Shown here: positions 7,867 through 64,000 of the stretch, one piece after another | How the letters are laid out: each line of letters begins with the position of its first letter | Position numbering within the stretch: the first letter of the stretch is position 1 | IMG/VR virus record: IMGVR_UViG_3300035675_000001 | From: a virus | Taxonomy: Duplodnaviria; Caudoviricetes | Length of the DNA: 64,000 nucleotides | Reading direction: 5' to 3' (one strand) | Notes under the pieces: generated by a model | Seen by the model: only the letters and a program-made list of their open reading frames with translations | Database searches by the model: none | Told to the model about the DNA's origin: nothing | Translations under genes and position numbers: made by a program

Positions 7867-8505
7867 ATGAGCAAGACACATCCTGAAATCGCAAAAGCAC
7901 TCCTGGAACGCCGCAACAGGATGACCCACGTCATTCTGCCTGGCGAAATCACCGCCGAGATCGGTCCCGATGGGGTCGCCGAGGCGCTGAAACAACGCTG
8001 GCTCGTGCCCGACGTGGAGGAGTCTGGCTACCTGTGCGTCAGCAAAGACCTGGGTGTCATCGCTGAAATGCGCCGGTTGGCCGAGATGAAGCCGGAGGAA
8101 TACAAGCCCGAAGCGATGCCCGTCGCCGAGAGCCACGACATCTCCTTGCTCCACACCAAGCGCAACCACCGTCTCCAGGAGGTTGCCGCCCCCATGACGG
8201 GTGCGCCGTCGCCTGGTTTGTCCAGCATGGCACAGCCGCAGGCTCCCGTCTCCCCCACTGCCCCCAGGGGAACGCCGGGAGCGGACATGCCAGTGAGCAC
8301 CAAGGTCATGGTGTCGCGCCAAGGCAAGTCTTTCAACGGTGTGATCGAGAAGCTTCTGCCCGATGGTCGTTTCCAAGTTGGTTTCCCTGACAACGAGAGG
8401 CCACAAGGTGAGCATGTTTTCTCCAAGGATGAAGTGAGCGTCGTCCCGACGAGTCCTCAGCGTCCTGGCGGAAGCGTGGCGACTGTTGGTGCGGCAGCTT
8501 CATGA
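7867..8505 (+). CDS. Hypothetical protein with C-terminal SH3/Tudor-like domain, probable head protein
   Basis: LQEVAAP site, Pro-rich linker, TKVMVSRQGKSFNGVIEKLLPDGRFQVGF. Confidence 0.45.
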   Translation: MSKTHPEIAKALLERRNRMTHVILPGEITAEIGPDGVAEALKQRWLVPDVEESGYLCVSKDLGVIAEMRRLAEMKPEEYKPEAMPVAESHDISLLHTKRNHRLQEVAAPMTGAPSPGLSSMAQPQAPVSPTAPRGTPGADMPVSTKVMVSRQGKSFNGVIEKLLPDGRFQVGFPDNERPQGEHVFSKDEVSVVPTSPQRPGGSVATVGAAAS

Positions 8506-9002
8506 ACACGTTACTGCTACGCCGAATCCTGGAGGCCGACGACGAGGATACGATTAAGGACATCCTCGGCGCGGACTATCAAGAGCCAGAACAAGCTCCC
8601 GAACAGGGCGAAGTCGAGCGGCACGACCGCTGGGCTGACGTGAAGATGGGAGACTGGAACTGGTGCGTTTCCTACCTCACCCCGGTCGCTTTTTACGAGC
8701 CGGGCGCGGGCATTACCGTGACCCAAAAGCGGTGGTCGAACGCCACGCTCAACCACATCAAGAAGTGGGCGGACCACATCGGTTTTGGCGGCGGCTTCCG
8801 CCGTTACGCCGACCTGGAAGCTCGTGCCAAGACGATGCCCCAGGAGGAGATGATCGAGCTGTTCAGGATGCGGGCTGGCCGCGTGCGCTGGACAAAGCGC
8901 CACGCCCGAAAACTGTCGGCGGTCCCCTACAACAAGATTCAAACCGGCCTCAAAGGTGACCGCGAAGATCGCGTCGAAATCGAACCTCACCGTGAGCAAT
9001 GA
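8502..9002 (+). CDS. Tagged putative internal head protein (SYxTPVA family)
   Basis: N-terminal ILEADDEDTIKDI tag; SYLTPVAFY...WSNATLNHI; paralog of the next gene. Confidence 0.6.
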   Translation: MNTLLLRRILEADDEDTIKDILGADYQEPEQAPEQGEVERHDRWADVKMGDWNWCVSYLTPVAFYEPGAGITVTQKRWSNATLNHIKKWADHIGFGGGFRRYADLEARAKTMPQEEMIELFRMRAGRVRWTKRHARKLSAVPYNKIQTGLKGDREDRVEIEPHREQ

Positions 9003-9706
9003 ACGAAGTCAAATCCATTCTCGCGCACCTGCTCGAAGCCGAGGAGGAAGACTTCGGGATCAAGGATGTTGAGCCGACAGAGCCGGTAGCAGGCCAGGCC
9101 AAGGTCACACGTCACGGGCGCTGGAAGGTTGTGGACATGCCCCACTACACCTTCCTGATTTCCTACCTCACTCCTGTCGCCTACTACGACAAGCTGCTCG
9201 ACGCCTTCTACCAAACGCGCAAACAGTGGTCGCCCACGACCAACGGCCACATCCAGCAGTGGATCAGCCAGGTTTACAAGTCGCCGGAATGGCAAAACCG
9301 CGAGGACAACAAAGAGTGGGAACCTCCCACGGAGTGGAGGCCGGAAGGCTACTTCCGGGTGAAGTATCCCCAGCTTGCCTACAAGAAGCAGGACGAGATT
9401 TCAGGCTTGTTCAAGAAGCTGATGGCGACGATGGAATTGAAGCCCCGCGAAAAGAAACGGCTCTACCACGTTGCTCCCGTGATGCGAGCGGGCAGTGAAG
9501 CAGCTCGCCGGGCAAGCCAATGGGTTTCGGGCCACGGCAAGCACCACGATACCGGCGAACAAGGCTTGCCCCGACCTGGATCGACCTGGCGCAGAGAAGA
9601 CCCGGACCTCGGTAAGTTCTTCGCTGACTTCGAGCCGGATGAAGCTGAAATGTGGGACTGGCAACAGAGTGAGCGCCGGAGCCAAGAACCCCATGAGCCA
9701 GAGTGA
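8999..9706 (+). CDS. Tagged putative internal head protein (SYxTPVA family)
   Basis: LLEAEEEDFGIKDV tag; SYLTPVAYY...WSPTTNGHI. Confidence 0.6.
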   Translation: MNEVKSILAHLLEAEEEDFGIKDVEPTEPVAGQAKVTRHGRWKVVDMPHYTFLISYLTPVAYYDKLLDAFYQTRKQWSPTTNGHIQQWISQVYKSPEWQNREDNKEWEPPTEWRPEGYFRVKYPQLAYKKQDEISGLFKKLMATMELKPREKKRLYHVAPVMRAGSEAARRASQWVSGHGKHHDTGEQGLPRPGSTWRREDPDLGKFFADFEPDEAEMWDWQQSERRSQEPHEPE

Positions 9707-10484
9707 TGAAATCCTTCGAGCACTGCTTGAGTCCGACGCCGATGACGAATCGGGCGTGAAGGACTTCCTGGGTATTCCCCAGGAGATTCTGGACCGCCAG
9801 TTGAAGGAGCTGTTGCCCGCCGCCATTGATCGCAAGTCCAAATACCTGGGCTACCCGTGCGTTTGGGTGGGCAAGCCATTCACCAATCCCCAGGGCGAGA
9901 CCTTCATCTTCGGCAAGTTCGGCAAGAAGCAGCCTCACTCCACCATGTCCACGCTGCTCTACCTGAACCCTGACACGGGCTGGCAGCTCGCGGAGAGCTT
10001 GAACGAGGACGAGGAGGACGAGTTCAAAGAAGTTTACGGTGGAGTCGAGCCGACCGCCTACCTGCCCCTGGGCACGGTGATCCACCACACCATGCGCCCG
10101 GAAGACCTGATCCCGGCCTTCCTGGACGCCCTGGAAAGCGTGGCCCCGGACGAAGCCGCTGAGATTCGAGCCGGTTACGCGGAGGAGATTGCCAACGACG
10201 ACGAGGAGTTCCTGAACGAAACCCTCTGGAACGTGCTGAACAGGCACACGCCTCCCTACACCTACTTCGGATCACATCCCGGCGACGGCAGCGATTACGG
10301 CGTGTGGGTGAACACCGAGGCCATCGACGATGACATCCGTTACGAGGAAACCGACAAGCTCCTGCCGATGCGGAAGGGCGAACGGATGCCCCAGGGCAGC
10401 CAATACGTCATCGTCATGGATCACGCGGGCAACTACGAGGAGCTGATCGACGGCTTAACCGGTCGGCAGATTTGGGTCCAATGA
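9693..10484 (+). CDS. Two-module tagged protein
   Basis: Tags LLESDADDESGVKDF and LNEDEEDEFKEV; second module GTVIHHTMRPEDLIPAFL...YFGSHPGDGSDYGVW resembles a conserved phage domain of unknown function. Confidence 0.6.
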   Translation: MSQSDEILRALLESDADDESGVKDFLGIPQEILDRQLKELLPAAIDRKSKYLGYPCVWVGKPFTNPQGETFIFGKFGKKQPHSTMSTLLYLNPDTGWQLAESLNEDEEDEFKEVYGGVEPTAYLPLGTVIHHTMRPEDLIPAFLDALESVAPDEAAEIRAGYAEEIANDDEEFLNETLWNVLNRHTPPYTYFGSHPGDGSDYGVWVNTEAIDDDIRYEETDKLLPMRKGERMPQGSQYVIVMDHAGNYEELIDGLTGRQIWVQ

Positions 10485-11434
10485 CAACTACCGACCTCAT
10501 CCTCACCGGCCTGCTGTCTGAAAAAGGGACCGGCATCTTCGTGAAGCAGCTCCGCACCGGGCCGATCTACACCTGCAAATGCCCCACCTGCGGCACGCTC
10601 CACGGCGCGTTCAGGAGTTACCCCGAAGCCGAAGCCAACCTGAAATGCCGCCAGTGCAACCGCACTGCCGTTGACAAGCTCAAGAAGGACGTGGCCAAGG
10701 TGGAGGAGCCGGAGAAGCCGCAGAAGAACATCTTCCAGAATCCGCTCAAGAAACCGACCGTGATCGGCGAAGCAGAGGACGATGACTTCCAGGTGAAGGA
10801 CGTGGGCCTGCCGGTGCAGGATCACATCCGCTACGAGATTTTCGATGGTCGTGAATACTACCCGCTGACCAACACCGGCCTGATCGGTCGCCAGGGCTGG
10901 AAAGACCTCGGCCAGTTCAGCGGCCAGTGGCGCTTCATGGGGATCAAGCCCAACGCCGCCGACCGGCGCTTCATCCCCTGGGCGGAAGTCGTGAAGGAGC
11001 TGGAGAGCGGCCAGTCCATCAGCGGCCACATCGTGGATTTCGACCACGGCAGCTACCGGCAGTGGGGCGCAATGGCAAAAGTTTACAGATTAACTGTAAA
11101 CGAATCCTTCGAGGACGATGAGATCGAGGATGTGAAGTCGATCTTGGGCGACATCCCGCTGGACCCCGATGCTCCCACGGAGCCAGGTCAGGTAAATAAG
11201 TGGGTGTGCGTGAACGCGCACCACGGGCAAGAATTTTACAGCCGCAGCGAGTTTCACGCGAATGGGTATCCCAAGCGCGTGCGCGTGAGCGGGAAATGCA
11301 AAACCTGGAAGACACGACCAAATGAATTTAAGCTCCCCGTCAAGTATGGACTCAATAAGAACCTTTATATCACCGATGCTGACGCGAGCGACTGGAGCAC
11401 AGTCGCCATTGGTCGAGACGGCAGGCCGATATGA
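10481..11434 (+). CDS. Three-module tagged protein with N-terminal Zn finger
   Basis: CKCPTC...CRQC; internal tags IGEAEDDDFQVKDV and VNESFEDDEIEDVKSI. Confidence 0.6.
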   Translation: MTTTDLILTGLLSEKGTGIFVKQLRTGPIYTCKCPTCGTLHGAFRSYPEAEANLKCRQCNRTAVDKLKKDVAKVEEPEKPQKNIFQNPLKKPTVIGEAEDDDFQVKDVGLPVQDHIRYEIFDGREYYPLTNTGLIGRQGWKDLGQFSGQWRFMGIKPNAADRRFIPWAEVVKELESGQSISGHIVDFDHGSYRQWGAMAKVYRLTVNESFEDDEIEDVKSILGDIPLDPDAPTEPGQVNKWVCVNAHHGQEFYSRSEFHANGYPKRVRVSGKCKTWKTRPNEFKLPVKYGLNKNLYITDADASDWSTVAIGRDGRPI

Positions 11435-11438
11435 CGGT

Positions 11439-12107
11439 TTGATCCAGGAGGCTTCGGCACTCCTGAAAGACGGCCCGATCAGCGAGCTGACGCACATCCA
11501 GCGCATGTGGGCCGACGTGACCTGGAACAAGGTGGAAGACCAGCGCGTGTCCACTGACGCCGAAGTTGCCCGCGACGGTTCACACCGAATCGCCCTTTAC
11601 CCATCGCTCACGCAGAAGCCCAAACAGCTCGCGTGCTCCATTCTGATCCGGGAGTTCGGTCACCTGCTCTACCGCAAAGCCCCGGAAGCATTGAAGCGCC
11701 GGTGGACGAACAAGCTCTGCCTGCCCGCCAGCGCACAGATCGACGCAGTTCAGCGCAAGCTCACGCCGGAGTTCAAGAGCTACCGCAGCCTGGTTGAGTC
11801 CTTCAAGACGGCGATGGACCGCTACGTCGCCCTGAATCTGGCCAACGCGCTGATCGCCAAGGGTGTCCCCTACGCCCAAGTCCAAAATGTAAACTTGCGG
11901 CAATGGGGTGCCACGCAGGAATACGCCAACCGCAGGCGCTACCACGTCCTGATCCCGCTGGTCTCGGCCTACAGCTCGAAGGACATCTTCGAGGACTTTG
12001 GGACGGCCTTGGCGGATTGGGTGTGCGGCACCAACGGGATCACGGAGTCCAGCGTCGCCGAAGCCACGCACGGGATCATCAAAGACATTCTGGAAGGGAT
12101 GCGCTAA
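11439..12107 (+). CDS. Zincin-like protein with degenerate HExxH
   Basis: ILIREFGHLL and EDFG..LA; start uncertain (TTG at 11439). Confidence 0.45.
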   Translation: MIQEASALLKDGPISELTHIQRMWADVTWNKVEDQRVSTDAEVARDGSHRIALYPSLTQKPKQLACSILIREFGHLLYRKAPEALKRRWTNKLCLPASAQIDAVQRKLTPEFKSYRSLVESFKTAMDRYVALNLANALIAKGVPYAQVQNVNLRQWGATQEYANRRRYHVLIPLVSAYSSKDIFEDFGTALADWVCGTNGITESSVAEATHGIIKDILEGMR

Positions 12108-12766
12108 ATCCGCTGCCCAAGCGCCTGCTCGGCCTCGCGCTTCGACATCTCGAACTTGTGGCCCAGCTCGTCCACGCCGACGTAGCGCGTCAGCTCGCAG
12201 AGCTGGTTTTGCAGCGGCCATGATCGAAACTCCTCCACGGTCTGACCCATCGCCTGGGCAGCCCCTTCGGCGTGTTGCTCCAGCCAGGAGTCCAACTTGC
12301 CGTCGTCGCTGACGTGGATTTCATACCAGGGGAACCGCTTGCGCTCATTCAGGAAGGCGGCACGGGCCGTCTGATACTGGCTGACGAGCTGTTCGCGCTC
12401 GCGCTCATTGTCGTCCCGCGTGCGCTGCTGCCATTCCAGGTCTCCGTCCGGGTCCAGGTAATTGGAGGGGAACCGATGCTCTATATTGGCCATGACCTGG
12501 GGCGGAACCTCCACGTCTTCGGGCTGGATTTCGTGGATGCCCAACTGATCCATCACATCCATGCCCTCGAAATACCAGATGATCCGCTTGATCGGGTTGT
12601 AGAAGTAGCCGCCGTAGTCCCACGCGCTGCCGAAGTCGCCGTCGATCTGCTCCCACCACCCATCCTCACTTTGGGGGTCATCAACCTCCTTCACGTCAAA
12701 GTCATCCTCGTCTTCCAGCAGATGGCGGACGATTTCCGGCGCGGTCAACAGGGCTTCTTCTCTCAT
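12104..12766 (-). CDS. Tagged putative internal head protein
   Basis: APEIVRHLLEDEDDFDVKEV at the N-terminus; typical codon usage. Confidence 0.6.
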   Translation of the reverse strand: MREEALLTAPEIVRHLLEDEDDFDVKEVDDPQSEDGWWEQIDGDFGSAWDYGGYFYNPIKRIIWYFEGMDVMDQLGIHEIQPEDVEVPPQVMANIEHRFPSNYLDPDGDLEWQQRTRDDNEREREQLVSQYQTARAAFLNERKRFPWYEIHVSDDGKLDSWLEQHAEGAAQAMGQTVEEFRSWPLQNQLCELTRYVGVDELGHKFEMSKREAEQALGQRI

Positions 12767-14490
12767 TGCAGCAAGAGGGTGACGAGCTGGGCGGCACGCT
12801 CCTCGATCTGCTCGCGCAGACCGCGCTTCTGCCCCATGCGCTCTTTGTGATAGGCGGCTGGATCGGCGATGATGTTCGACGGGTCAAAGCCTTCGCCCCA
12901 CTCACGGATCGTGCGAAAAGCCCGATTGAAGCTCCGGGCCAGGGCTTGAAATTCAGCGGGCTGGAGCCTCTGCCGCCAGTCCTGAATGATGTCAGCCCAG
13001 GTTGCCCTTTCCTCGGATTGGCCACGGCGGAAAACAACGCCCTGGTAAGGCGGTCTCAGCTCCACGAGGTCATCAATGCTCACCACGGCCAGAATTTTCT
13101 CAGGCTGCCCGGTCTTGACGTGGAACATGATCGGGATTTTCTTGAACGGCCTGATACCCGCATCGCCGCTGTAATCGTAAGCGTCAATGCCCGCCTGGAA
13201 CTGCGACCAGGGCGTCAAACTGTGCCGGGAGCCGGTCGTGACCTGGGTAAGCTGCTCAGGGTCGGAAATATCCCACTCCTTCTGCCCGGCCCGCACGGCT
13301 GCCGCCAGGGTGAGCGGGACATAGACATCAACATTGGCGTCAGAATACAGACGCTCATTCCGGCCCACCTTCCCCTTGGCCCCGGCATAGCGCACATCAC
13401 CCAGGATGCGCTCGCGCATGGGCAGATTGGAGATGGCTTCATTCGCCTTGTTGACTTCCTGGATCGTCGGATATGGACCCTTGTAAACCAGGTCGCCGCC
13501 CTTGCTGAGCGTGACCTTGCCGATCTCCAGGTTGATGTCGATAGGCTCGCGGGGAGGGATTTGCTGCTCCGGGGGTAACCCCTGATTCTTCTGTGCCAGG
13601 CTGGCGTTGTAGGCGTCGAGCTGCGAGTTCCGGCGCTCCACGCGCTCCTTGTTGATGAGGAACTGGCGCATCGCGTTGTAAACGATCTCGTAGCGCCCCT
13701 CCTTGCCGCCCGGCCAGTGCCGCCAAAAGCCGAACAGCGTGTAGTGCTTGGAATCTTCGTCGCCGAACAGATACTCGCGGCGGCGATCCGGCTCAACCGA
13801 CTTCCACTCCTGCTCCGCCGCCTCACGGTCGATACCGCGCATGAGCTTGCTGTAAACGAACAGGGCATGAACGCGGTCACGGACCTTGGTTTCGAGCTGA
13901 TTCTTGATCCACTTCTTGATCTTGCCGCTGACCAGCGCCATCGCCACTTTCTCCTCCTTGCCGGGCGCGACATTGTTGGTCCGCAGGACGTTGAGGATGC
14001 CAGTAAACCGCGCACCCACGTCAGGAGAAGATGTAGCCGAAGCCAGGGCGGTAGTCAGGCTGGTGAGCTGCTGCAACCCGGTGGTGCGGGCGTAGTCGCT
14101 GATTTCCTGAGTCGTCAAACGGGTGTTCGGCGCTTCTGCCTGGAACTTTCGGAAGAAGTCCTCCGGCGTCTTTTCCGGGAACCCATCGCCCCACTGCTTC
14201 TTGGCCTTCTCGAATGCCTCCGAGCCGCCGCCCGCCTGGTAGAGCATCCAGTCCAGGTAGCGTTTGTCCGGGGTGCTATCGAGTTCGGCAAACTTGTTGA
14301 AGACCTCCGGGTCCAGGAGCGGTCCTTTGCCCAGCGGGCGGTTATCAGGGCCAACCGCATTGATCGAGACCGTATCATCAAGCCGATACTTCTTTTTCAG
14401 CTTGTTGAGCGTGGCCTCTGGACTCTTGCGAGTCTTGGGCTTCGGAGCTTCCTCCGGGGCCTGCCCTGGTTGTTCGACTGGTTCCGGCAT
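12763..14490 (-). CDS. Large hypothetical phage protein
   Basis: ELDSTPDKRYLDWML and VYVPLTLAAAVRAG..W patterns recalled from large-phage proteins; ATG at 14490 preferred over the track start, which overlaps rusA. Confidence 0.6.
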   Translation of the reverse strand: MPEPVEQPGQAPEEAPKPKTRKSPEATLNKLKKKYRLDDTVSINAVGPDNRPLGKGPLLDPEVFNKFAELDSTPDKRYLDWMLYQAGGGSEAFEKAKKQWGDGFPEKTPEDFFRKFQAEAPNTRLTTQEISDYARTTGLQQLTSLTTALASATSSPDVGARFTGILNVLRTNNVAPGKEEKVAMALVSGKIKKWIKNQLETKVRDRVHALFVYSKLMRGIDREAAEQEWKSVEPDRRREYLFGDEDSKHYTLFGFWRHWPGGKEGRYEIVYNAMRQFLINKERVERRNSQLDAYNASLAQKNQGLPPEQQIPPREPIDINLEIGKVTLSKGGDLVYKGPYPTIQEVNKANEAISNLPMRERILGDVRYAGAKGKVGRNERLYSDANVDVYVPLTLAAAVRAGQKEWDISDPEQLTQVTTGSRHSLTPWSQFQAGIDAYDYSGDAGIRPFKKIPIMFHVKTGQPEKILAVVSIDDLVELRPPYQGVVFRRGQSEERATWADIIQDWRQRLQPAEFQALARSFNRAFRTIREWGEGFDPSNIIADPAAYHKERMGQKRGLREQIEERAAQLVTLLLQ

Positions 14491-16745: not shown

Positions 16746-16746
16746 C

Positions 16747-53284: not shown

Positions 53285-53285
53285 C

Positions 53286-53435: not shown

Positions 53436-53917
53436 GCTTTTTAACTGAACGCAAGATGGCGAACACGCTGGACGTGCCCATCGCCCTGCCCGCCACGGAA
53501 CTCAAGATGTCCGATTGGCTGGTGATCGCCACGATCAAGCTGACCGCACCTTCGCGCCTCGCGGTGCGGATGCTCCACTTCAACTTCATCAGCTCGACCG
53601 TGGACTTGCAGAACATCAAAACGGTCAACTACATCAACTCCAGCATGGGCTTGTGCTACGTGGGGCTGTTCCTGAACTACACGAACGGCGACCCCTCGCA
53701 GCTCACCAAGCTCGACAAGGTGAGCGCCAGCAGCCTGGGCGTCTTCACCCGCCTTGGCAATCCGCTCATCATCAGCACGCCCGGCACCTACACCTGGCTG
53801 GCCGTCAACAACGTCCAATACAGCAACCAGAACCCCTACCTCACGGTGACGGACAGCGCGGACTTCCGCGTGAGTTGCACCGGCCAGTGGCGCATTGAAC
53901 TCGACCCGACGCAATGA
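53432..53917 (+). CDS. Beta-rich virion protein, paralog of 57927..58352
   Basis: LDVPIALPATELK...PGTY.....NN...D..V..TG. Confidence 0.55.
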   Translation: MSFLTERKMANTLDVPIALPATELKMSDWLVIATIKLTAPSRLAVRMLHFNFISSTVDLQNIKTVNYINSSMGLCYVGLFLNYTNGDPSQLTKLDKVSASSLGVFTRLGNPLIISTPGTYTWLAVNNVQYSNQNPYLTVTDSADFRVSCTGQWRIELDPTQ

Positions 53918-56900
53918 AGGAAGTGGATGACATCCTGGCCGCGCTCCTGGAGGATGAGGATGACCTCAGCTCCAAGGACGTGTTCTTCCCCAATGACCCC
54001 AAGGCTGTGGACTTCTCCGAGCCGCTGGCGGGCAATGAGGCGAAGCTGCGCCGGGTGTTCACCTGGCTCACGCGCCTGGGGATGACGCCCGCCTTTGGCA
54101 GCGTGCCCATCGGCTGGTATCAACAGGCCCAGTTCGAGGCCATCGACCGGCTGCGGGCGCTGGCCAAGCTCAAGGGCATTGACCTGCGCTGGGTCAAAAA
54201 GAAGAACGAGCACATCCTGGCCTATCACCAGGACCGCTGGGTGCCCATCGCCAAGTTCGGCTGGCGAGATGAGCTGGTCGCCGAAGCGATGGACGACGAC
54301 TTCGACATGAAGGAAGTCACGGGCGGGGCCTTCGATGAGCTGGCCCAGCTTGTAGCCAGCGGCGTCCTGGACCTGAGCGGCAAGGTCGAGCGTGGCAGTT
54401 CCCGCTACGTCCACGAGCGCAGCACCACCTTCGAGCTTTACAACAGCTACAACTGGCCGGACGACATGCCGCAGGAGGAGCGCGAGGCCGAAGAAGTCCG
54501 CATCGACAAGCTCATCAGCGAGCTGGAGAAGTATGTCAGCGAGCGCATCGTTGCCTGGAACCACAAGATTTACCAGGAGTTGGAGAAGGACTACGAGTGG
54601 GCTTACGAGGACGAGAACATCGCCGACACTCTGGAAGCAAACGACTACCACTTCACCGAGGATGGTGAGCGGGATGATGAAGGCCCATTCACCTACCAGC
54701 AACTCCAGCCCGACGCCCAAGAGGCTGCCCGCCAGTGGTGGAAGGACGCCAACGAGCAGGACAACTGGTGGAGCGAATCGACCATTGCCGAGTGGAAGTG
54801 GCTGCTCGACCAGAAGGGATTCCTTGGCGTGGAGATCGCCTTTAGCGGCTTCTGGAGCCAGGGCGATGGCGCTTCCTTCGAGGCCAAGCGGTTTGACGCG
54901 GCCCAGTTCTTCAAGGGCGTCGATCCCCTCGACTTCCCGGAGCAGGACCGCGAGCAGATGAGCGAGTCCCAGGAAGATGACATCCATCCCAAAGACCTGG
55001 CGACCACCAACCCGGAGGACGTGGCTTCCGAAATCCTCCGCCTGGTCACCGCCATTCCGGGCGTGACCGACGTGACCATGACCAGGGGCGCGGTCAACCC
55101 GGAGCACGTCATCATCAACGGCAAGATCAACCTCGACCACTGGGACGCGGGCTACGCCATCGACAAGGCGATCTTCCCGGTCATGGAGAACCCTGCCGTC
55201 GAGATTACTCGCCACACCGCCTTCGCCGCCCCGATGGACAAATATCCGCGTGGCTTCGCCGTGGTGGTCAAGCCCGCGCTGCGCGAGTCACTGCTGGAGC
55301 GTTACGGCGGGGCCGAGAAAGAGCGCCAGATTTTCTACCACGGCACGACCTCCACCCTGCTGCCCAAGATTCTCGCCCAGGGCTTGATTCCCAATCCCAA
55401 GGTCCGCTCCTGGTCCGACGATCCGCACAAGGGCCTCATCCAGCCCTCGCGCCAAAGCCTGGAGGGCATCTACGTCACGACCAACCTGATGACTGCCGTC
55501 TCCGCCGCTGGCCGCGTGGCCCGGCGCGACAAGGCCCACCGGCTGATCGTGGTGATGGAGCTGCAACCCCGCGACCTCCTGGCCGACGAGGATGACATCG
55601 GCGGCACGATCAACGCACTGGCCAACCACATCAGCGACCACGTTTACTCGCACATCTGGCCCTACTTCGCCGAAGTCTATCGAGACCGAATGCGCTACGC
55701 GGAGGAATACGCGCCCCGCGCCGACCAGGCCAAGGCCAAATGGGTGGACGACGCCGCCAAGCAGATGCTCTACAAGTTCGGCCAGAACAGGCCGGAGCTG
55801 GAGACCCGCCTGCGCGAGCTGCTGGCCAACGAGGGCTACCGCATCATGCTGACCCGCATGGCCTCCTATGCGGGCGACTGGGAGAAGGGCTACTGGCACA
55901 GCGAATGGCGGCACCTGTTTGGGACCGACGAGGACGCTCCTCCGGTGCCGGACAAGAACCAGGCCGAAGCAGACTTTCTCGCTTTCAAGGACAAGCTGAC
56001 GCGCACGCTCAAGGGCAAAGCCCGCCCGCTGATGCAGAAGGACTGGAAGCTCAACGTCAGTGGCCGGTCCATGAAGCCCATCGGTTTCGACGGCAGCGAC
56101 CGCATCATCTGCATCGTCGAGGAGATCGACCACTCCGGGCCGGAGTATTACACCGGCATGATCGTCCACTACGGCAAGCCGCCCGAACAGCTCATCAAGG
56201 ACTGGACCGAATCCCACGGCCCCCTGGACAAGCCAGACAGCATTGTTTACAAAAACGCGCAGCAGGAAGCTTTCGAGACGCACGGCCAGGCTTTGGCCCG
56301 CACCGGCGAGTGGGGCACCCAGGCGGCAGGCGGCGTCTATATCGCCCAGGACACCGGGCGCGTGCTCATCGGCTTTCGCTCCAGCGATGTTCTCAAGCCG
56401 CACACCTGGGGCACCTTCGGCGGAGCAATGGACGAAGGCGAAGACGCGGCCACGGCTGCCCAGCGCGAGATGAAGGAGGAGACCGGCTACAGCGGGCCGA
56501 TGGAGATGAAGCTCGTTTACGTTTTCGAGAAGGGCACGTTCAAGTATCACAACTTCGCCGTCATCGTGCCCGCCGAGTTCAAGCCGCGCCTCAACTGGGA
56601 GAACGATGACGCCGAGTGGTTCGAGCCGGGCAAGTGGCCAAGCCCGCTTCACCCTGGCATGGATCAGCTTCTTTCGCGCCTGGGCGCGGTCCAGGAGTCC
56701 GAGGATGACGACTTCGACGTGAAAGAAGTGGCCAAGGTCGATGACGGAATCTTCGTCAACTACACCTACGACTCGCACGACCCCGATGGCCAATACGAGC
56801 AGGTGTGGGAAGACGAGGGACCGTTCGTGTCCATGCAGAGCGCCTACGAGTGGGCGCAGAAAAACCTGTCCCGCGACAAGATCGCCGAGCTGAACATCAC

Positions 56901-57930
56901 CCGCGAAGTCCTGGGCAGCGTGACCGACAAGATCATCGTCGATCAGTTTTGGGGAACCTGGGAGAAGCGCGGCGAGCAAACGGTTCCTGTAAACATTTCC
57001 GAGGCAGCCGATGACGACTTTGAAACCAAGGAGATCGCCGAGTTTGACCCGGACCCGTTGACGTTGACGCGCAACTTCATGGAGACGGCCTACACGACGC
57101 ACGGCGATCTGGACCGCTTCATGACCAAGCTCTCCGAGGTCGTGGACTGGCCCCAGCTCTACGCCGCCTATCCGCGCATGGCTGACATGCCGGTCAAGCT
57201 TTACGGCGGCGTGCCCATGCAGATCGGCTGGGCTGTGAGCAGACCCGGCACGGTTGCAGGCGTCAACCTGGAGCCAGGGCAGACTGTGTTCCTTGTTGGT
57301 CGCCAGGCATTCGATGATGCGCCCAAGCGCCTGGAGCGCCGGTTCGCGTGGGCCATCAAGTGTGCCCTCGACGTGCTCGATGGCCGCAACCCGGACAAAG
57401 AAGCCGCCAAAGAGTGGGCCGCGAGAAAGACCAAGAGCCGCTGGCCCGACGACTACCAGTATGGGTTTGAAAGCCGTGATCCCGACGCCGTAGTGGAAAC
57501 TGCCGAAGACGACTTTGAGGTCAAGGATGTGGGGCTGCCCGGCCAGAACTGGACCTACCACATCTTCCGCTTCCCCACCGCAGCGGCCATCAACTACTTC
57601 GTGGTCGAAGACCCGGCCTTCAAACACGAGCCGTTTGTGACCGACCGCACCGGCGATGAGCTGGAACGCGGCATCCGCCCTCGCTGGCCCAACTGGGACA
57701 AGCTGGGCAAGACGGTGGGCGGTCACACCTTCCCCCGGCGAATGCCGGACAAGGAGCTTCACCAGATCGCCCAGGCGCAGATCAGGCAGTTCTTGAGAGC
57801 GGGCGAATTTCCGCGCCAGGGCTACCGCGACGTGTGGGAATGGATGCGGGATGTGCGCGACACCGGCAAGCCCCATGATCCGCTCCCGTGGGACATCCGC
57901 AGGCGCGGCAATACTTACAGACAGATATGA
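53914..57930 (+). CDS. 1338-aa tagged polyprotein containing ART-like and NUDIX domains
   Basis: Six tags; FYHGTTS.LLPKILAQGLIP...GIYVTT; GGAMDEGEDAATAAQREMKEETG Nudix box; FSGFWSQGDGASF domain. Confidence 0.8.
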   Translation: MKEVDDILAALLEDEDDLSSKDVFFPNDPKAVDFSEPLAGNEAKLRRVFTWLTRLGMTPAFGSVPIGWYQQAQFEAIDRLRALAKLKGIDLRWVKKKNEHILAYHQDRWVPIAKFGWRDELVAEAMDDDFDMKEVTGGAFDELAQLVASGVLDLSGKVERGSSRYVHERSTTFELYNSYNWPDDMPQEEREAEEVRIDKLISELEKYVSERIVAWNHKIYQELEKDYEWAYEDENIADTLEANDYHFTEDGERDDEGPFTYQQLQPDAQEAARQWWKDANEQDNWWSESTIAEWKWLLDQKGFLGVEIAFSGFWSQGDGASFEAKRFDAAQFFKGVDPLDFPEQDREQMSESQEDDIHPKDLATTNPEDVASEILRLVTAIPGVTDVTMTRGAVNPEHVIINGKINLDHWDAGYAIDKAIFPVMENPAVEITRHTAFAAPMDKYPRGFAVVVKPALRESLLERYGGAEKERQIFYHGTTSTLLPKILAQGLIPNPKVRSWSDDPHKGLIQPSRQSLEGIYVTTNLMTAVSAAGRVARRDKAHRLIVVMELQPRDLLADEDDIGGTINALANHISDHVYSHIWPYFAEVYRDRMRYAEEYAPRADQAKAKWVDDAAKQMLYKFGQNRPELETRLRELLANEGYRIMLTRMASYAGDWEKGYWHSEWRHLFGTDEDAPPVPDKNQAEADFLAFKDKLTRTLKGKARPLMQKDWKLNVSGRSMKPIGFDGSDRIICIVEEIDHSGPEYYTGMIVHYGKPPEQLIKDWTESHGPLDKPDSIVYKNAQQEAFETHGQALARTGEWGTQAAGGVYIAQDTGRVLIGFRSSDVLKPHTWGTFGGAMDEGEDAATAAQREMKEETGYSGPMEMKLVYVFEKGTFKYHNFAVIVPAEFKPRLNWENDDAEWFEPGKWPSPLHPGMDQLLSRLGAVQESEDDDFDVKEVAKVDDGIFVNYTYDSHDPDGQYEQVWEDEGPFVSMQSAYEWAQKNLSRDKIAELNITREVLGSVTDKIIVDQFWGTWEKRGEQTVPVNISEAADDDFETKEIAEFDPDPLTLTRNFMETAYTTHGDLDRFMTKLSEVVDWPQLYAAYPRMADMPVKLYGGVPMQIGWAVSRPGTVAGVNLEPGQTVFLVGRQAFDDAPKRLERRFAWAIKCALDVLDGRNPDKEAAKEWAARKTKSRWPDDYQYGFESRDPDAVVETAEDDFEVKDVGLPGQNWTYHIFRFPTAAAINYFVVEDPAFKHEPFVTDRTGDELERGIRPRWPNWDKLGKTVGGHTFPRRMPDKELHQIAQAQIRQFLRAGEFPRQGYRDVWEWMRDVRDTGKPHDPLPWDIRRRGNTYRQI

Positions 57931-58352
57931 ACGGCTTTGTCACAACTCAGCGTTACGGGACCACATTTGATGTGCCCATCAGCCTGCCGCAGACTGAACT
58001 CCGGCGCGGGCGCTACATCAACTGCGGCCAAATCCGGCTGACGCTGGGCCAGGTCTTGCGGATTCGCTGCCTGAACCTGCACCTGGTCAACATCATCACG
58101 GCCACGGCGCTGCCCGACATTTTCAGCACGCCCCTGGGCATCGTGAGCGCAGGCGTCTATCTCTCGCCGATGATGTGCTCGTCGTCCTGTCTGCTGACCG
58201 CTCAGTCGCCTGGGATCATTTCTGTAAACAGTTTCGCCTACAAGGAATACCGGTCGCCTGGCCTCTATTACTTCACCGTCAGCAACAACACGACGAACGT
58301 GGACGTGAGCGTCGCCCTGACGGGGGTCATCAAGCTGCTCAACTACGCATGA
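57927..58352 (+). CDS. Beta-rich virion protein, paralog of 53432..53917
   Basis: FDVPISLPQTELR...PGLY...SNN..NVDVSVALTG. Confidence 0.55.
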   Translation: MNGFVTTQRYGTTFDVPISLPQTELRRGRYINCGQIRLTLGQVLRIRCLNLHLVNIITATALPDIFSTPLGIVSAGVYLSPMMCSSSCLLTAQSPGIISVNSFAYKEYRSPGLYYFTVSNNTTNVDVSVALTGVIKLLNYA

Positions 58353-58365: not shown

Positions 58366-61281
58366 ATGAGTGACGCACTCGAATCTGCCCTTATCATTCA
58401 GCTCCAGGAGGCGATCAAATGGGGTTCGCCGCTGCCTGCCCCGGAGATCGTGACCGGGCGCATGACCCAAGTCGATCCTGGCCTGCCGTTCAACGTCGTG
58501 GACTACTCCAAGCGCGACCGCGAGTTGCAGCAGCGCGACAACATCATTGCCGCCGCCGTCTGCAAGGTCTCGCTCCATGCCCGCACCGTCTGGAGCGGCA
58601 CCGTGGTCTATCCCCGGCTCCAGGGCGTCCAGGGTGTCACCGACTACACCGGCACCAACATCTTCCTGGGCGTGGACCCGCAAGAGCTGAACTATCCGCT
58701 CCCGGTGAACTACACCAGCGTCATGTATGTCGGCAATGGCAGCGTGCCCTACGACGCAGTGCTCACGACCGACAAAGACCTCTATGGCCGAGACCTGCTG
58801 CTCTACGAGACACTGGCCCGCGCTGCCTCCATCTTCCCCATCGAACCCATCCAGGAGAAAGACCCTGCCGGTGCGGTCATCGGCTCCACCAGCATTTGGG
58901 CCACGGCCAGCGGCACCGACCGCAACGTCACGCCCAACTCCGCGCAAGCGATGGACGTGGCCATGCTCAAGGAGCCGGACATGTATCTGGCCGAGCGCGA
59001 CAATCAGAACGCGGCCTACGTGTCGCGGGTCGCCCAGGCGCTCAAGAACCCGTTCGAGTATGCCTCGCGCATCTACGTGGAAGTCGTCGGGCCTGCCGAG
59101 CGCGAGACTGAGACCTACGTCCTGAGCGAAGCCGTCTTCATTTACGGCCAGGTTTACGCCGCCAACGAGGAGGTCAAATACACCAGGCCGACCATCGACT
59201 CCGGCGCGGACACGGTGACCATCGCTGCGGACGGGACTGCCACGATCTCGACCACCGGCTACCTGTTCGGCAACGGCAACGACGTGGGGCGCATCTTCGT
59301 CCTGGACTCCGACAACCTGCCCTACACGATCACCAACTTCATCAGCACCACCCAGTGCGTGGTCACGACGGACGGTGCCAAGACGGCCACGGGTTTCACC
59401 ATCACCAACACGATCTCGCAGTGGTATCGAGCCAACTACACCACCGGCGACATCCCCTACGGCAGCCCCGCCTGGACGCAGATCAGCGCCCCCAACCTGC
59501 GACAGTTCCTCTCGGAACCGGCGCTCTCCAGCCGCAACCGGATCATCTACAACGTCTCGGCCAAGACCCTCCAGTGGCTCCGGGAAAACCTGGACCTGGT
59601 TCACGTCCCGCAGATCGTCGGCTTCATGATCCCCGGCGTGCTGCCCGGCCAGACCGTGGAGACGGTCCCGCAGGTGCCAGAGACGAAGGACTCCCAGTTC
59701 TGGCGGCAGAAGTCAGGCCGCGTATCGCTCCAGAGCGGCACCTGGCAAAACTTGGCCTCCATCTATCCCACGGCGGGAGCAGCCACAACGGGCGGCATCG
59801 ACACGATGTTTCAGAGCGCCAAGGCGCTCACCCTGATGATGCCCGATACCGCCGCGATCCAGTTCAGCGCCCCCATCTGCCCGCCCGGCACCTATGCCAT
59901 GACGGCGCTGATCCGACCAGCCTCCACCGTTTACATCGCGGGCATCGACCGCGTGGTGGGCGGCACAAGCGTCCCAGCCAACAGTGGCGTCAACTTCAAC
60001 GGGCTGAACGAAGTCATCCAATACAACATCAAGCTGCCCTATGGCACCTGGACGCTGCGGATCGAATACACCAACGACGTGACCGCGCTCACGGACAGCG
60101 TGGGGTTTGGTGTCATTGTCAGCATCCCCGGCCAGATTCTCTTGGGCGACGCCACGCCGCTTTACTTCGCCGATACCAACGGCAATCCGCTGCCCAAGGG
60201 CCTGCTTGTGACCAGCAGTGGACTTGACATCAACGCCCAGGGCCAAGCCTACCCGCTCTCGATCCAATGGACTGCCGGGTCCGGCAAGCTCCACATCCGC
60301 CGCCTCATCTTCTCGTCCACGACCAACCAGACCAGCCATTACATCGTGGACACATCCTGGCGCGGCAAGAACTACACGGCCAAGCTGGACGTGATGGGCG
60401 AACGCGACTGCCCCGACGTGATGCCCTTCCGGTTCTACCTGGCGACAGGCGACAGCAACCCCACCTTCGACCTGACCTGGAAGATTGCCAAAGGCGCACC
60501 CTACGACGCCACACGGACGTATTATCCCGGCGACCAAGTGCTCTATAACGGCATCTACTGGCAAGCGACGGACATCATCAGTCCCGGCGTCTATCCAGGC
60601 AGCTCGACGGACTGGAATCCGCTCAGCCGCGAGCCACAGATTCCGCTCCTGGTCGAAAGCCTGAACCTCCAGTATCTCCGCACCACGGAGGTCACACCGA
60701 TGACCAGCGGCAACCTGGGCTTCCGCCAGGACATGGTTGAGCGGTCGCTGCGCTGCGACCAGGATGCCTACCGGGCCAGCATCAGCAGCGTCGGCAGCAA
60801 CTTTCCTGAGTTTCGCGTCGCCAACGCGACGGGCTACTCCTGGGAGCGTGAATCCACCGAAGCGTGGATGGGCTTCCAGGAGAGCTATAACCCGCGCCTG
60901 CGCGAGTTCCAAGCTGTCAGCGGTGCGATCCTGGAGGGGCGCTACTACGAAGTGCGCGGCACCACCGGGAGCCTCATCTACAACTCTGTCGTCTATGCCC
61001 CCAACCAACGCTTCTACGGCGTGGCCGGGGTGACCACTTTCACGCCTGGTGGTGATTGCACGCTCTGGCAAGTCGGAGCTTACCGGGTTTCTCTCCCAGG
61101 GGATGTGGGACAGCCAGCTTACGTGCCGGACGGGCTGGAGTTCGTTTTGTCAGCGGGAACCGTGGCCGGTTGGTATGCGTCGTATGCGTCCTACCCCACC
61201 ATCCAGACCCTTCAACCGTGGATGGTGGAGAAAGGTATTTATGTGGCGCAGCCGGAGTTCTGGTCGCCGCCGACAATGTAA
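58366..61281 (+). CDS. Large virion structural protein (tail/baseplate-associated) with a CBM5/12-like module
   Basis: T/G/Y-rich beta composition; YDATRTYYPGDQVLYNGIYWQAT....PG..P...W. Confidence 0.6.
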   Translation: MSDALESALIIQLQEAIKWGSPLPAPEIVTGRMTQVDPGLPFNVVDYSKRDRELQQRDNIIAAAVCKVSLHARTVWSGTVVYPRLQGVQGVTDYTGTNIFLGVDPQELNYPLPVNYTSVMYVGNGSVPYDAVLTTDKDLYGRDLLLYETLARAASIFPIEPIQEKDPAGAVIGSTSIWATASGTDRNVTPNSAQAMDVAMLKEPDMYLAERDNQNAAYVSRVAQALKNPFEYASRIYVEVVGPAERETETYVLSEAVFIYGQVYAANEEVKYTRPTIDSGADTVTIAADGTATISTTGYLFGNGNDVGRIFVLDSDNLPYTITNFISTTQCVVTTDGAKTATGFTITNTISQWYRANYTTGDIPYGSPAWTQISAPNLRQFLSEPALSSRNRIIYNVSAKTLQWLRENLDLVHVPQIVGFMIPGVLPGQTVETVPQVPETKDSQFWRQKSGRVSLQSGTWQNLASIYPTAGAATTGGIDTMFQSAKALTLMMPDTAAIQFSAPICPPGTYAMTALIRPASTVYIAGIDRVVGGTSVPANSGVNFNGLNEVIQYNIKLPYGTWTLRIEYTNDVTALTDSVGFGVIVSIPGQILLGDATPLYFADTNGNPLPKGLLVTSSGLDINAQGQAYPLSIQWTAGSGKLHIRRLIFSSTTNQTSHYIVDTSWRGKNYTAKLDVMGERDCPDVMPFRFYLATGDSNPTFDLTWKIAKGAPYDATRTYYPGDQVLYNGIYWQATDIISPGVYPGSSTDWNPLSREPQIPLLVESLNLQYLRTTEVTPMTSGNLGFRQDMVERSLRCDQDAYRASISSVGSNFPEFRVANATGYSWERESTEAWMGFQESYNPRLREFQAVSGAILEGRYYEVRGTTGSLIYNSVVYAPNQRFYGVAGVTTFTPGGDCTLWQVGAYRVSLPGDVGQPAYVPDGLEFVLSAGTVAGWYASYASYPTIQTLQPWMVEKGIYVAQPEFWSPPTM

Positions 61282-61292
61282 AACGTAAACAA

Positions 61293-61976: not shown

Positions 61977-62674
61977 TGTGCCGGGATCAAATTCCAGTCT
62001 GCATCCAGTCCTGCTCGAAGGAGTTCGCCTTCGAGCGGCGAATGGCTTGCCTGGACACTTGGGTTCCGACGTTATCGTCGAAATTCTACCCCATCTTCCT
62101 GGTCGGCAACCCCGACCAGGAAGTTGATTACATCTTCAAGGAGCTAGGCCCTGGCTGCGGCAATTACCTCAGCGTCCGCTTCTGCGACGAGTGGTATGCG
62201 CTCTCCGGCAAGATGAGGCGCTGGTGGGTGTGGGCGCTGGAGCACTTCGACGCGCCCTGGTTTTTCAAGTGCGACGACGACAGCTACGTCAACGGCAGGC
62301 TGTTCAACGATTTCCCCTTTGAGCGTTACGACTACACCGGCCATTTCTACACCGAAACTTACGCCTGGAAGCAGAAACGTCCGCTGGTTGGCAGCGAGAT
62401 TCAATACAAGGCCCACGGCGCGGGCTACAGCCTTTCCCGGCGCTGCGCCAAGCTCGTGTCCGAGAAGCTGGGCGACTGGGAGCCTGGCGGCGAAGACGTG
62501 AGCACGGCCAGGACCATCTTCAACGGCATCCCCGACGTGGTGATCCACGACATGTGGGAACCGCGAGTCGCGCCCTGGGCCAGACTGAACATGCAGCCCG
62601 ACTGGTTGGTCGGCCACGAGATTCGGGGCATGGACATGATGCGCCAGGTTCACCGGAAGGTAGTTAATCCGTGA
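61976..62674 (+). CDS. GT31/Fringe-like galactosyltransferase
   Basis: WFFKCDDDSYVN, GAGYSLSR, EDV. Confidence 0.8.
   Translation: MCRDQIPVCIQSCSKEFAFERRMACLDTWVPTLSSKFYPIFLVGNPDQEVDYIFKELGPGCGNYLSVRFCDEWYALSGKMRRWWVWALEHFDAPWFFKCDDDSYVNGRLFNDFPFERYDYTGHFYTETYAWKQKRPLVGSEIQYKAHGAGYSLSRRCAKLVSEKLGDWEPGGEDVSTARTIFNGIPDVVIHDMWEPRVAPWARLNMQPDWLVGHEIRGMDMMRQVHRKVVNP
62660..62666 (+). promoter_or_regulatory. GTAGTTA element before the terminal polyprotein
   Basis: GGTAGTTAATCC-GTG, 4-nt spacer. Confidence 0.6.
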
Positions 62675-64000
62675 GACTAAAGACGACCTCGCTCAAGCGC
62701 GGCCTGCTCCTCTATCACGGCACCAGCTCGCCGGATTTTGACGAGCGGGCTGGCAGCCTCGCTTTCCCTGCCTGGTTCAGCGAGAAGGAGCGCGTCGCCC
62801 GCTACTTCGTCAACTGGCATGGTGAGCCGGAGCCTTACCCCTACAACGAGGAGCTGCCAAGCTCCGCCCGCATTATTGTTTACAAAGTCTCTCAGCCCAT
62901 CAAGGTGCTCCTCATCCCGGACGGCGAGACGATGGATTACATCCGCGACGAGATGGCGATGGCCGACGACGTTGAAACCCTGGCCGACTGGTGCTGCTCC
63001 AACGGCTACAACGGCTGGGTCATCCCCAACAACTACCCCGCCGAGGGCGGCAGCGACATCATGCTCTGCCGAGACGAGGGCCTGGAGTATGTTGAGACCA
63101 AGGCCCTCAACGAGAGCGCCGAAGACTTCGACAGCAAGGATGTCAGCGAGCCGGACCCGGTGGGGCTGGTTCACAGCATCATCCAGAACGCCGGGATCAC
63201 CGACATCAACGTGAAGCGCACAGGCCGGTCCATGATATTCGACGGCATCCTGGGCCGGTATCCCACGCACACCAGGGACGGCACCAAGATCGAGGTCGCC
63301 GACCTGTGCTACGCCCAGCAAATCTCCTGGAAGATCGCGGAGCTGCCCCAGGTCGAGAAGTGTAACGCGACCACCAACCGGCTGCCGGACGGGCGCAAGA
63401 CGGCTCACTTTTGGGTGCTCTGGCGCGAGGAGACCAACGCGCAAATCCAGATGGAGGCAGAAGAAATTGTAAACAATCTCATCGAGGCCAACAGCGCCCA
63501 CCTGGAGATGGCCACGCGAGCAGCCCGCTGGATTTACCAGCACGACCCTGACTTCTTCGAGGGCGGCTGCGGCGATGTCAACCACGTCATCAAGAAGTTC
63601 CTGGAGACCCAGCAGGTGCCCGTTCGCCTGCTCACCGGCTATGCCGTCTTCGCCCGCGAGAAGGTGCCTCATGCCTGGCTAGAGATTGACGGCCAACAGT
63701 TTGACCCGGTTTACACGCTCCAGCGCATCGTGCCCAAGAGCTACGTGCCCAAGCCAATGGACCTGGGCGACTTCGGGGTGGACGAGGAAAGCGGCTACCA
63801 CGACGAATTAGTCCAGCAGCTCCAGCAGGCCGTGACCCTGGGCGAGAGCGAGGAGGAAGACGACTTCAAGGATGCCTGGAAGGAGCCGGACGCCTGGGAA
63901 TGGATGCGCGACACCTTGCCCGGCCTGGGCTTCCAGTATGAAGACATGGGCATCAAACACTGGTGGAAGAAGGCCAAAGGCGGCAAGCGCGTGCGGGTAT
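62671..64000 (+). CDS. 3'-truncated tagged polyprotein: ART-like domain, unknown module, transglutaminase/papain-like domain (absent from the ORF track)
   Basis: GTG overlaps the upstream TGA and the frame stays open to the window end; LLYHGT...AWFS; tags LNESAEDFDSKDV and LGESEEEDDFKDA; GGCGDV...HAW...FDP. Confidence 0.7.
   Translation, partial: MRLKTTSLKRGLLLYHGTSSPDFDERAGSLAFPAWFSEKERVARYFVNWHGEPEPYPYNEELPSSARIIVYKVSQPIKVLLIPDGETMDYIRDEMAMADDVETLADWCCSNGYNGWVIPNNYPAEGGSDIMLCRDEGLEYVETKALNESAEDFDSKDVSEPDPVGLVHSIIQNAGITDINVKRTGRSMIFDGILGRYPTHTRDGTKIEVADLCYAQQISWKIAELPQVEKCNATTNRLPDGRKTAHFWVLWREETNAQIQMEAEEIVNNLIEANSAHLEMATRAARWIYQHDPDFFEGGCGDVNHVIKKFLETQQVPVRLLTGYAVFAREKVPHAWLEIDGQQFDPVYTLQRIVPKSYVPKPMDLGDFGVDEESGYHDELVQQLQQAVTLGESEEEDDFKDAWKEPDAWEWMRDTLPGLGFQYEDMGIKHWWKKAKGGKRVRV

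Follow-up and report, generated by a model that had tools for sequence, protein, structure and literature searches.

A two-part acidic tag repeated between protein modules of an uncultured jumbo phage: a candidate system for processing capsid cargo

We analyzed a stretch of 64,000 nucleotides (hereafter, the window; 60% guanine plus cytosine, GC) from the tailed-phage record IMGVR_UViG_3300035675_000001, whose proteins carry about 25 copies of a short peptide tag. The tag consists of two halves, a hydrophobic-x-Glu-small stretch followed by an acidic run that leads to a Lys, and it stands near the N termini of proteins or between their modules. It is real, restricted to one clade of phages of roughly 220 to 250 kb with T4-type heads, selected at the protein level, and placed in linkers, and the gain and loss of modules is enriched near it. 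From these patterns we infer cleavage, encapsidation, injection, and a job for the acidic half; in the reading that we prefer, with a probability of roughly 0.55, tagged chains are loaded into the capsid and cut after each Glu by an S77 prohead protease, and the modules are injected.

The window aligns collinearly, in reverse, with the region from 165 to 107 kb of a relative, IMGVR_UViG_3300037264_008423 (238,436 bp, an estimated 96% complete; hereafter G001), at 40 to 83% amino acid identity.

The tag and its copies in the window

Tags were searched for as a regular expression over all six frames, the strict pattern being [LIVM]-x-E-[SAGTD]-(acidic run, often DDDF)-x-x-K-[DE]-[VLI]; the coordinates given are those of the tags and not of the starts of open reading frames (ORFs). 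The window holds 21 strict tags in 11 ORFs, while 1,000 composition-keeping shuffles within each of 74 crude genes gave 0.48 ± 0.71 (maximum, 5). Beyond these there are two Met-initiated copies (16747 and 42595) and two or three degenerate ones, which brings the total to about 25 in 13 ORFs. Among 23 acidic-K cores, 21 have a hydrophobic-x-E just upstream, and the other two begin at the initiator Met. Copies are found on both strands, although only in coding frames.

The original prediction, made from the DNA letters and a list of their ORFs, had counted about 23 copies in 12 unrelated ORFs, a number with which our total agrees, and every example it quoted was recovered in the ORF to which it had been assigned. 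Its counts also held for the two long proteins (four in 51536-53284 and six in 53914-57930) and for the terminal ORF (two), as did a variant in the 41072 ORF (at 41303-41344) and a related helix that precedes tags or ends proteins (43993-44025, with a variant at 12766-12795). The spread over many ORFs was thus borne out, although their unrelatedness was slightly overstated, 8502 and 8999 being paralogues (phrog_5643, with cross-hits). The copies and the helices associated with them are as follows, a slash marking the position after the Glu and pLDDT standing for the predicted local distance difference test.

8526-8564, plus: ILE/ADDEDTIKDI, ORF 8502-9002, after an 8-residue N-terminal leader
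9029-9070, plus: LLE/AEEEDFGIKDV, ORF 8999-9706, after the leader MNEVKSILAH
9723-9767, plus: LLE/SDADDESGVKDF, ORF 9693-10484, after the leader MSQSDEILRA
9987-10034, plus: LAE/SLNEDEEDEFKEV, internal, ORF 9693-10484
10763-10804, plus: IGE/AEDDDFQVKDV, internal, ORF 10472-11434
11096-11143, plus: VNE/SFEDDEIEDVKSI, internal, ORF 10472-11434
12683-12721, minus: LLE/DEDDFDVKEV, ORF 12104-12766, after the leader MREEALLTAPEIVRH
12766-12795: C-terminal helix AAQLVTLLLQ
16747-16773, plus: MDAEEFKEL, core right at the start Met, without leader or x-E, ORF 16747-17445 (weak P-loop nucleoside triphosphatase matches)
from 19873, plus: leader-like helix of ORF 19843-20415, ending FLLE/DD; GTAGTTA lies 4 nt before the start of the ORF
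20011-20049, plus: FAE/TEEDFEAKDL, full tag, ORF 19843-20415
41303-41344, plus: degenerate VLLADDDVDTIEDI, without the Glu and Lys, ORF 41036/41072-41539
42595-42618, plus: MDDDFKEL, core right at the start Met, ORF 42595-44028
43180-43218, plus: MRE/SEEEDMMKEV, internal, ORF 42595-44028
43993-44025, plus: leader-like helix AAEIVKNLLEA, extreme C terminus of ORF 42595-44028
47303-47341, minus: LLE/TDDEDLVKDA, in a gene that most likely starts at GTG 47371 with the leader (M)DRTQPILRF (external gene call, 201 amino acids)
51566-51604, plus: VLE/SDEDFVGKDM, 582-residue protein (51536-53284), after the leader MSEALAILAR
51968-52015, plus: degenerate LAE/SELMGDEDDVKAV, same protein, in an AlphaFold2 segment (145-178) with pLDDT of <50
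52250-52291, plus: LRE/EVEDDEGFKDV, same protein; E, D, D, and K invariant in five orthologues
52634-52675, plus: IDE/ADEDEPDFKEF, same protein
53944-53982, plus: LLE/DEDDLSSKDV, 1,338-residue protein P0001 (53914-57930), after the leader MKEVDDILAA
54277-54318, plus: VAE/AMDDDFDMKEV, same protein, directly before the confident domain 140-343
54958-54999, plus: MSE/SQEDDIHPKDL, same protein, directly after domain 140-343
56689-56730, plus: VQE/SEDDDFDVKEV, same protein, directly after the NUDIX domain (800-925)
56995-57036, plus: ISE/AADDDFETKEI, same protein
57490-57531, plus: VVE/TAEDDFEVKDV, same protein
62671-64000, plus: terminal ORF, entire on other contigs (489 amino acids), with GTAGTTA 4 nt before its start
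63106-63144, plus: LNE/SAEDFDSKDV, terminal ORF
63838-63876, plus: LGE/SEEEDDFKDA, terminal ORF

The layout with a core at the start Met recurs in the G001 orthologue (MDELDDFKEI) and in P0150 and P0154. G001 also has a similar C-terminal ending (...VVKNLLG).

Anatomy and selection of the tag

We pooled 85 nonidentical tags from the window and its relatives. The residue at P3 (two ahead of the Glu), which had been left unconstrained in this search, is L, V, I, or M in 79% of them, and in 77% of 122 further tags; Ala or Gly stands there in 8% or less. P1' (directly after the Glu) is S, A, G, T, or D in 89% of the pooled tags, a Phe precedes the Lys by three positions in 46%, D or E and then V, L, or I come after the Lys, and lengths measured from P3 through the last hydrophobic residue peak sharply at 13 to 14. 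When the profile was instead anchored on the Lys (161 cores in 37 proteins), it still peaked upstream, with a hydrophobic residue at K-11, Glu at K-9/K-8, and a small residue at K-8, so both halves keep a fixed spacing of 8 to 9 residues.

N-terminal tags are preceded by a helix with the consensus x-x-I-[LV]-x-x-L-[LI]-E, and seven window proteins as well as most relatives start with M-x(4-6)-I-[LV]-x-x-L-[LI]-E-[SADGT]. Leader-like stretches also occur in the 6413 protein, at its start (MKKNLLSFLFLE/SAEAD), and in the 7867 protein (PEIAKALLE/RRNR), so the leader helix is commoner than the full tag. The acidic half, in turn, is present right after start Mets (window, G001, P0150, and P0154), which suggests that it has a role of its own, for example in docking.

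Identical residues are encoded by identical codons in 57.7% of pairs of copies, against 58.5% expected from the pooled usage; the codon usage of the tags is that of the genome, and the mean pairwise nucleotide identity among copies is 0.585 over 33 nt. Since synonymous codons are random among copies, selection acts on the protein, and a repeat maintained as DNA is rejected. Conservation is about equal in tags and folded modules (0.53 versus 0.49 and 0.41 versus 0.37), which does not support that tags are more conserved than domains but does support that they do not evolve faster, unlike ordinary linkers.

Tags lie between folded modules

The expectation that structure prediction would place the tags in linkers between folded domains was confirmed. 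In an AlphaFold2 model of residues 1 to 1200 of the 1,338-residue protein (mean pLDDT, 56.5; nine sequences in the alignment), each of the six tags lies where pLDDT is <50, in segments that directly border the confident domains 140-343 and 800-925, the latter a NUDIX domain (7.4e-13) whose fold was confirmed by Foldseek. The same is true for the four tags of the 582-residue protein, at the edges of its confident domains; there, a helix at 3-13 is followed by coil, and long helices stop at the Glu, the acidic stretch being coil. The informative part of these models is the abrupt change in confidence beside confident domains.

Orthologues with 45 to 71% identity retain the tags and differ by whole modules. 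In 44% of cases, the edge of a large indel is no more than 15 residues away from a tag, versus 15% for random positions; this measure is soft because the aligner tends to pair tags with each other. The median spacing between tags is 138 residues (28 further proteins), and whole modules of the polyproteins also exist as separate genes in relatives. Chains combine two or more unrelated effector-type domains (NUDIX, phrog_5162, and other modules), and the polyproteins of G001 have 2H/2'-5' RNA ligase and NUDIX domains. The terminal ORF begins with a YHGT ADP-ribosyltransferase-like module, for which the PARP match is weak (E = 0.026); a stand-alone ART-PolyVal gene (PF18760) occupies the syntenic place in L008, with a weak BLASTP match to the window module (E = 0.03). 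Foldseek on the 1,200-residue model returned only NUDIX folds, Pfam searches with single modules gave only subthreshold matches, and no hallmark PolyVal Pfam family was above threshold in the window proteins.

Distribution of the tag

A profile built from 48 tags was compared with 1.84 billion representative proteins, and only 34 matched at an E value of ≤0.001, with 2 to 12 copies each and, in many of them, a common N-terminal leader. A DNA pattern for DDDF[DE]xK[DE]V in IMG/VR retrieved one known relative (two stretches on one contig) and four low-GC matches, one per contig, which we read as chance. As both searches find nearly only relatives, the tag is a clade-specific invention, and the scan that had been suggested with a tag model thus found it in the relatives and almost nowhere else. 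G001 has 28 strict tags in 13 proteins. Within the window, no tag is found in the baseplate wedge, the DinG-like helicase, the tail-fiber-like cluster, the sigma-54 activator, the methyltransferase, the cytidylyltransferase, or the highly conserved protein at 47.4 to 49.5 kb. This absence from replication, tail, and glycan enzymes favors the original prediction.

No close cultured relative was found: the window has no near match in IMG/VR, and megablast with its polyprotein region gave no matches among deposited phages. With tblastn, the 1,338-residue protein matched only NUDIX domains of other jumbo phages, the best being the tag-free BcepSauron gp099, and the 8999 protein had no matches. Window proteins are present on several metagenome contigs, the longest listed being of 222,220 bp.

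A T4-type prohead protease in a relative

G001 encodes one PF03420 (Peptidase_S77) protein of 538 residues (58.5 bits versus a cutoff of 27), which aligns to the structure of T4 gp21 (5JBL) with a His (LEHP) at the catalytic position and an SSRG/ASRG serine motif. Its C-terminal 276 residues are scaffold-like and basic (isoelectric point, 9.8), and its gene is followed by one for a gp23-type capsid protein (PF07068, 96.2 bits). At least 389 homologues of this protease-scaffold fusion were found in metagenomes, while in IMG/VR its relatives are on short contigs only, which give no measure of breadth.

The pattern [LIVM]-x-E-[SAGT] occurs 13 times in the G001 protease-scaffold protein, or 2.4 per 100 residues versus 0.48 genome-wide. 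A set of 120 homologues averages 2.46 per 100 residues, against 0.61 after shuffling, so that the pattern is enriched four- to fivefold in this family; variants with Asp or Gln reach 0.2. The same count in T4 gave 3.7 for gp22, 2.8 for gp21, 2.65 for inh, and 2.5 for gp67, with low values in other proteins, and it recovered the known sites in gp23 (LTE/A, residue 65) and gp24 (LRE/S, residue 10). Because the enrichment is like that of the T4 proteins degraded by gp21, the protease of the clade has most likely retained the T4 rule, which the first half of the tag (P3-P1-P1') fits.

A side observation concerns the capsid protein itself. A 106-residue ORF of the window (20484-20804, plus) is 61% identical, over its residues 39-89, to residues ~86-136 of the gp23-type capsid protein of the relative (Pfam Gp23, 20.9 bits; cutoff, 24.4) and is a stand-alone capsid-fragment gene.

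Proposed mechanism and alternatives

In the mechanism that we propose, the helix ending in [LIVM]-x-E, together with the small residue that follows, would be the cleavage site of the S77 (gp21-type) prohead protease of the phage, and the N-terminal helix of 10 to 15 residues ending in L-L-E would act like the T4 capsid targeting sequence (CTS). Precursor chains would be made late, enter the prohead along with the scaffold core, and be cut after every Glu into single modules of ~100 to 230 residues, among them a NUDIX hydrolase, an ADP-ribosyltransferase-like enzyme, and, in relatives, a 2H phosphoesterase. Ejected together with the DNA, the modules would act early as effectors. After the cut, the acidic half (usually DDDF, then x-x-K-[DE]-[VLI], 8 to 9 residues from the Glu) would stay on the new N terminus; its probable role is docking. 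The basic scaffold part of the protease, whose charge is complementary, is one conceivable partner, although this choice is speculation. A fuller version of the idea, which we offer tentatively and regard as possible but doubtful, is a two-part cassette whose L-x-E half is cut by the prohead protease while the acidic half docks each module to the basic scaffold-protease core, so that any flanked domain would be loaded, released, and injected. This would be a true polyprotein strategy for interchangeable injected anti-defense enzymes, with 25 to 50 or more cassettes per genome.

Each computational check suggested with the original prediction favored its interpretation, which is thereby supported in part. 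Several points weigh against capsid loading and cleavage. The prohead protease gene, which the original prediction had left to be located, was found as a T4-type S77 gene in the collinear relative and not in the genome of the window, for whose phage it is presumed through collinearity. The capsid and protease-scaffold proteins of G001 have candidate hydrophobic-x-E-small sites without the acidic-K element, so the acidic half is not needed by the protease. Tag genes are scattered and do not adjoin the head module, and the heptamer GTAGTTA, described below, was not found before the capsid or protease genes of G001, so it ties tag genes to some virion genes only. Low pLDDT at the tags is weak evidence because the alignments are shallow (mean pLDDT, 56 to 57), and the softness of the indel-edge measure counts in the same direction. 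Finally, all members of the clade are uncultured and known here from sequences alone.

Alternatively, the tag could be an uncleaved flexible linker with a short binding motif, through which whole chains bind one shared partner (a host protein, a chaperone, or the capsid interior), giving higher avidity or keeping an enzyme array together. An acidic-F-x-x-K-[DE]-[VIL] stretch of fixed length with an aromatic residue does resemble a docking peptide, its presence right after start Mets leaves nothing there to cut, and the candidate capsid and scaffold sites lack it. We nevertheless consider this reading unlikely: the hydrophobic-x-E-small stretch is tied to the acidic half at 8 to 9 residues in nearly all copies and matches the sites enriched in the protease-scaffold protein, N-terminal copies follow a 10- to 15-residue helix, where a linker would be needless, and whole modules also occur as separate genes in relatives. 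Cutting of the tags by some other protease, either an embedded zincin-like module or a host enzyme, with release in the cytoplasm, either before injection or after it, and independently of head maturation, is less probable still. Of 37 tag proteins of the clade, only 3 contain an HExxH motif, and none of the 18 proteins examined from the window does; among 68 window ORFs, no peptidase family was found. The S77 rule, moreover, calls for a hydrophobic P3 and Glu at P1, a combination that is enriched in the S77 protein itself. These results stand against the HExxH modules that do lie between tags in P0004, P0135, P0155, and a G001 polyprotein (87573-91010, equal to L019 7573-11010), and against the precedent of polyvalent proteins, for which release by embedded peptidase domains has been proposed (PMC5512222).

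Two further explanations dispense with a function of the peptide. The enrichment of module gain and loss near tags could be expected if the repeat acted as DNA, whether by serving as a joint at which recombination shuffles modules or by being a regulatory element that is translated by accident, yet the synonymous codons are random (0.577 versus 0.585) with genome-like usage, nucleotide identity is 0.585 over 33 nt, and copies on both strands keep to coding frames, so we regard this as very improbable. That the tag arose by chance from acidic low-complexity stretches of a GC-rich genome has in its favor that the tagged proteins are acidic and rich in Asp and Glu; its probability becomes negligible given 21 copies against 0.48 in shuffles that keep composition, the retention of tag positions in orthologues, and the mere 34 matches in 1.84 billion proteins, each with several copies.

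Relation to known systems

The proposed capsid loading and cleavage resemble T4 CTS/prohead-protease processing combined with polyvalent effector proteins, the repeated tag as a joint being the new part. In T4, packaging requires no more than the first 10 residues of IPIII, of which positions 8 and 10 govern processing, and a leader common to different proteins has been read as a route for loading varied proteins into heads (PMC9026906). Like the tag proteins, IPI-III and Alt have a short N-terminal amphipathic peptide that ends in hydrophobic-x-Glu before unrelated cargo, a likeness of layout. T4 and the tag clade (as seen in G001) also share an S77 protease and a gp23-type capsid protein, and Alt is an ADP-ribosyltransferase, while the tag cargo includes an ADP-ribosyltransferase-like enzyme. 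However, T4 has one leader per protein without internal copies, compared with up to 6 tags in the window and up to 12 in relatives, and it has neither an acidic-F-x-x-K-[DE]-[VIL] element after the cut nor multimodule chains.

Polyvalent proteins, known from phages and conjugative elements, combine 2 to 15 unrelated effector-type domains per chain in shuffled architectures and are predicted to be packaged and injected; the paper that describes them (Iyer et al., 2017) proposes release by embedded peptidases and reports no repeated conserved linker, the word “linker” being absent from it (PMC5512222). In tag proteins, by contrast, peptidase motifs are rare and one conserved tag stands at every joint.

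The cleavage motif of the phiKZ type has a small residue at P3 (S/A/G-x-E), and the tag departs from it because P3 is L, I, V, or M in 77 to 79% of copies. In phiKZ, 201phi2-1, and SPN3US, a gp21-related protease (gp175 or gp245) cleaves many proteins of the head interior after Glu, and propeptides can hold several sites (PMC9026906 and PMC10052503). These cuts remove N-terminal propeptides and do not set functional modules apart, and no acidic-K element has been reported there. Encapsulin cargo-loading peptides are short, portable, and send unrelated enzymes into an HK97-fold shell; they have another sequence, usually a single C-terminal copy, and no protease step, so the resemblance to the tag is functional only. 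RNA-virus polyproteins are, like the chains proposed here, single products cut at repeated conserved sites into functional units, but they rely on an embedded viral protease and serve replication, whereas here we propose a capsid maturation protease and packaged cargo, without homology. A literature search turned up no phage proteins described as carrying a repeated linker of this cleavage-plus-acidic kind, and the original prediction, too, knew of no described phage with such a repeated linker.

If the proposal is true, a double-stranded DNA phage lineage delivers many enzymes with its DNA by a polyprotein strategy so far tied to RNA viruses, and it would be explained how polyvalent proteins without embedded peptidases resolve into active units. 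The tag would also be a sequence-only route to listing the injected proteome of uncultured jumbo phages, a list that would hold modules of plausible counter-defense enzymes (NUDIX, ADP-ribosyltransferase-like, and 2H phosphoesterase). In addition, foreign proteins could be loaded into T4-type capsids and released there with a compact cassette of 14 residues, which would extend the T4 CTS system that biotechnology already uses.

Genes around the tags

Apart from the tag genes, the window has a sigma-54 activator, sugar transferases, methyl transferases, and many unannotated ORFs. The main landmarks, two operons with tag genes among them, are as follows.

1697-4027, minus: baseplate wedge protein
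4695-6356: DinG-like helicase
6413-11434, plus: seven-gene operon headed by GTAGTTA at 6399-6405, with overlapping start and stop codons (genes 6413-7273, 7273-7860, 7867-8505, 8502-9002, 8999-9706, 9693-10484, and 10472/10481-11434; the last four hold six tags)
26.6-37.8 kb: fiber-like gene cluster
51184-58352, plus: polyprotein operon headed by GTAGTTA at 51173-51179 (genes 51184-51543, baseplate-wedge-like, phrog_7145; polyprotein 51536-53284; 53432-53917; polyprotein 53914-57930; and 57927-58352)

At the beginning of the first operon, the plus-strand ORFs between 6413 and 8505 are 76, 73, and 60% identical to G001, compared with 49 and 41% for the minus-strand ORFs 6437-7024 and 7111-8415; since the plus strand is far better conserved, the latter are shadow frames and the plus-strand genes are real. 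In the second operon, the polyprotein 53914-57930 is flanked directly by paralogous small proteins of 161 (53432-53917) and 141 (57927-58352) amino acids, without a family match, a pair that is kept in G001, L008, and L010 and that could be chaperone or adaptor candidates. The 141-residue gene directly precedes a large gene (58366-61281).

Small genes with an Acb2/Tad1-hairpin domain (PF24729) lie near polyprotein genes in L001 (8911-9162), L008 (8028-8330 and 19551-19823), and L010 (5945-6349), and their position beside polyprotein genes, in this phage and its relatives, is consistent with an anti-defense neighborhood. The most conserved protein of the window (47361/47490-49457, plus) is 83% identical to that of G001 and has a Pfam MJ0330_N match on other contigs; its L010 orthologue (1481-5926) is 1,481 amino acids long and contains intein, LAGLIDADG, and HNH domains. 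A sigma-54 enhancer-binding-protein core (39091-40065, plus; Sigma54_activat, 2.8e-58, plus an AAA lid and a Fis-type helix-turn-helix) has no receiver domain and no counterpart in G001.

The heptamer GTAGTTA occurs 13 times in the window versus 0.86 expected. An ORF starts soon after it in 10 cases, 4 to 7 nt downstream in nine and adjacent at 22325. These sites are 4033-4039 (minus), 6399-6405, 19832-19838, 22318-22324, 23558-23564, 24175-24181 (minus), 26628-26634, 30514-30520, 51173-51179, and 62660-62666, and the genes with the heptamer 4 to 7 nt before their starts include the wedge gene, two fiber-like genes, the tag genes 19843 and 62671, and the operons at 6413 and 51184. As a general marker of the virion class it was upheld only in part, and the large G001 genes preceded by it have no PHROG annotation. 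It is often embedded in GGTAGTTA[AT]GGC with a GTG or ATG after it, and it occupies the Shine-Dalgarno position yet is not Shine-Dalgarno-like. A second class of starts has GTTCT[AC] upstream, for example at 4695, 18708, 49477, and 58366.

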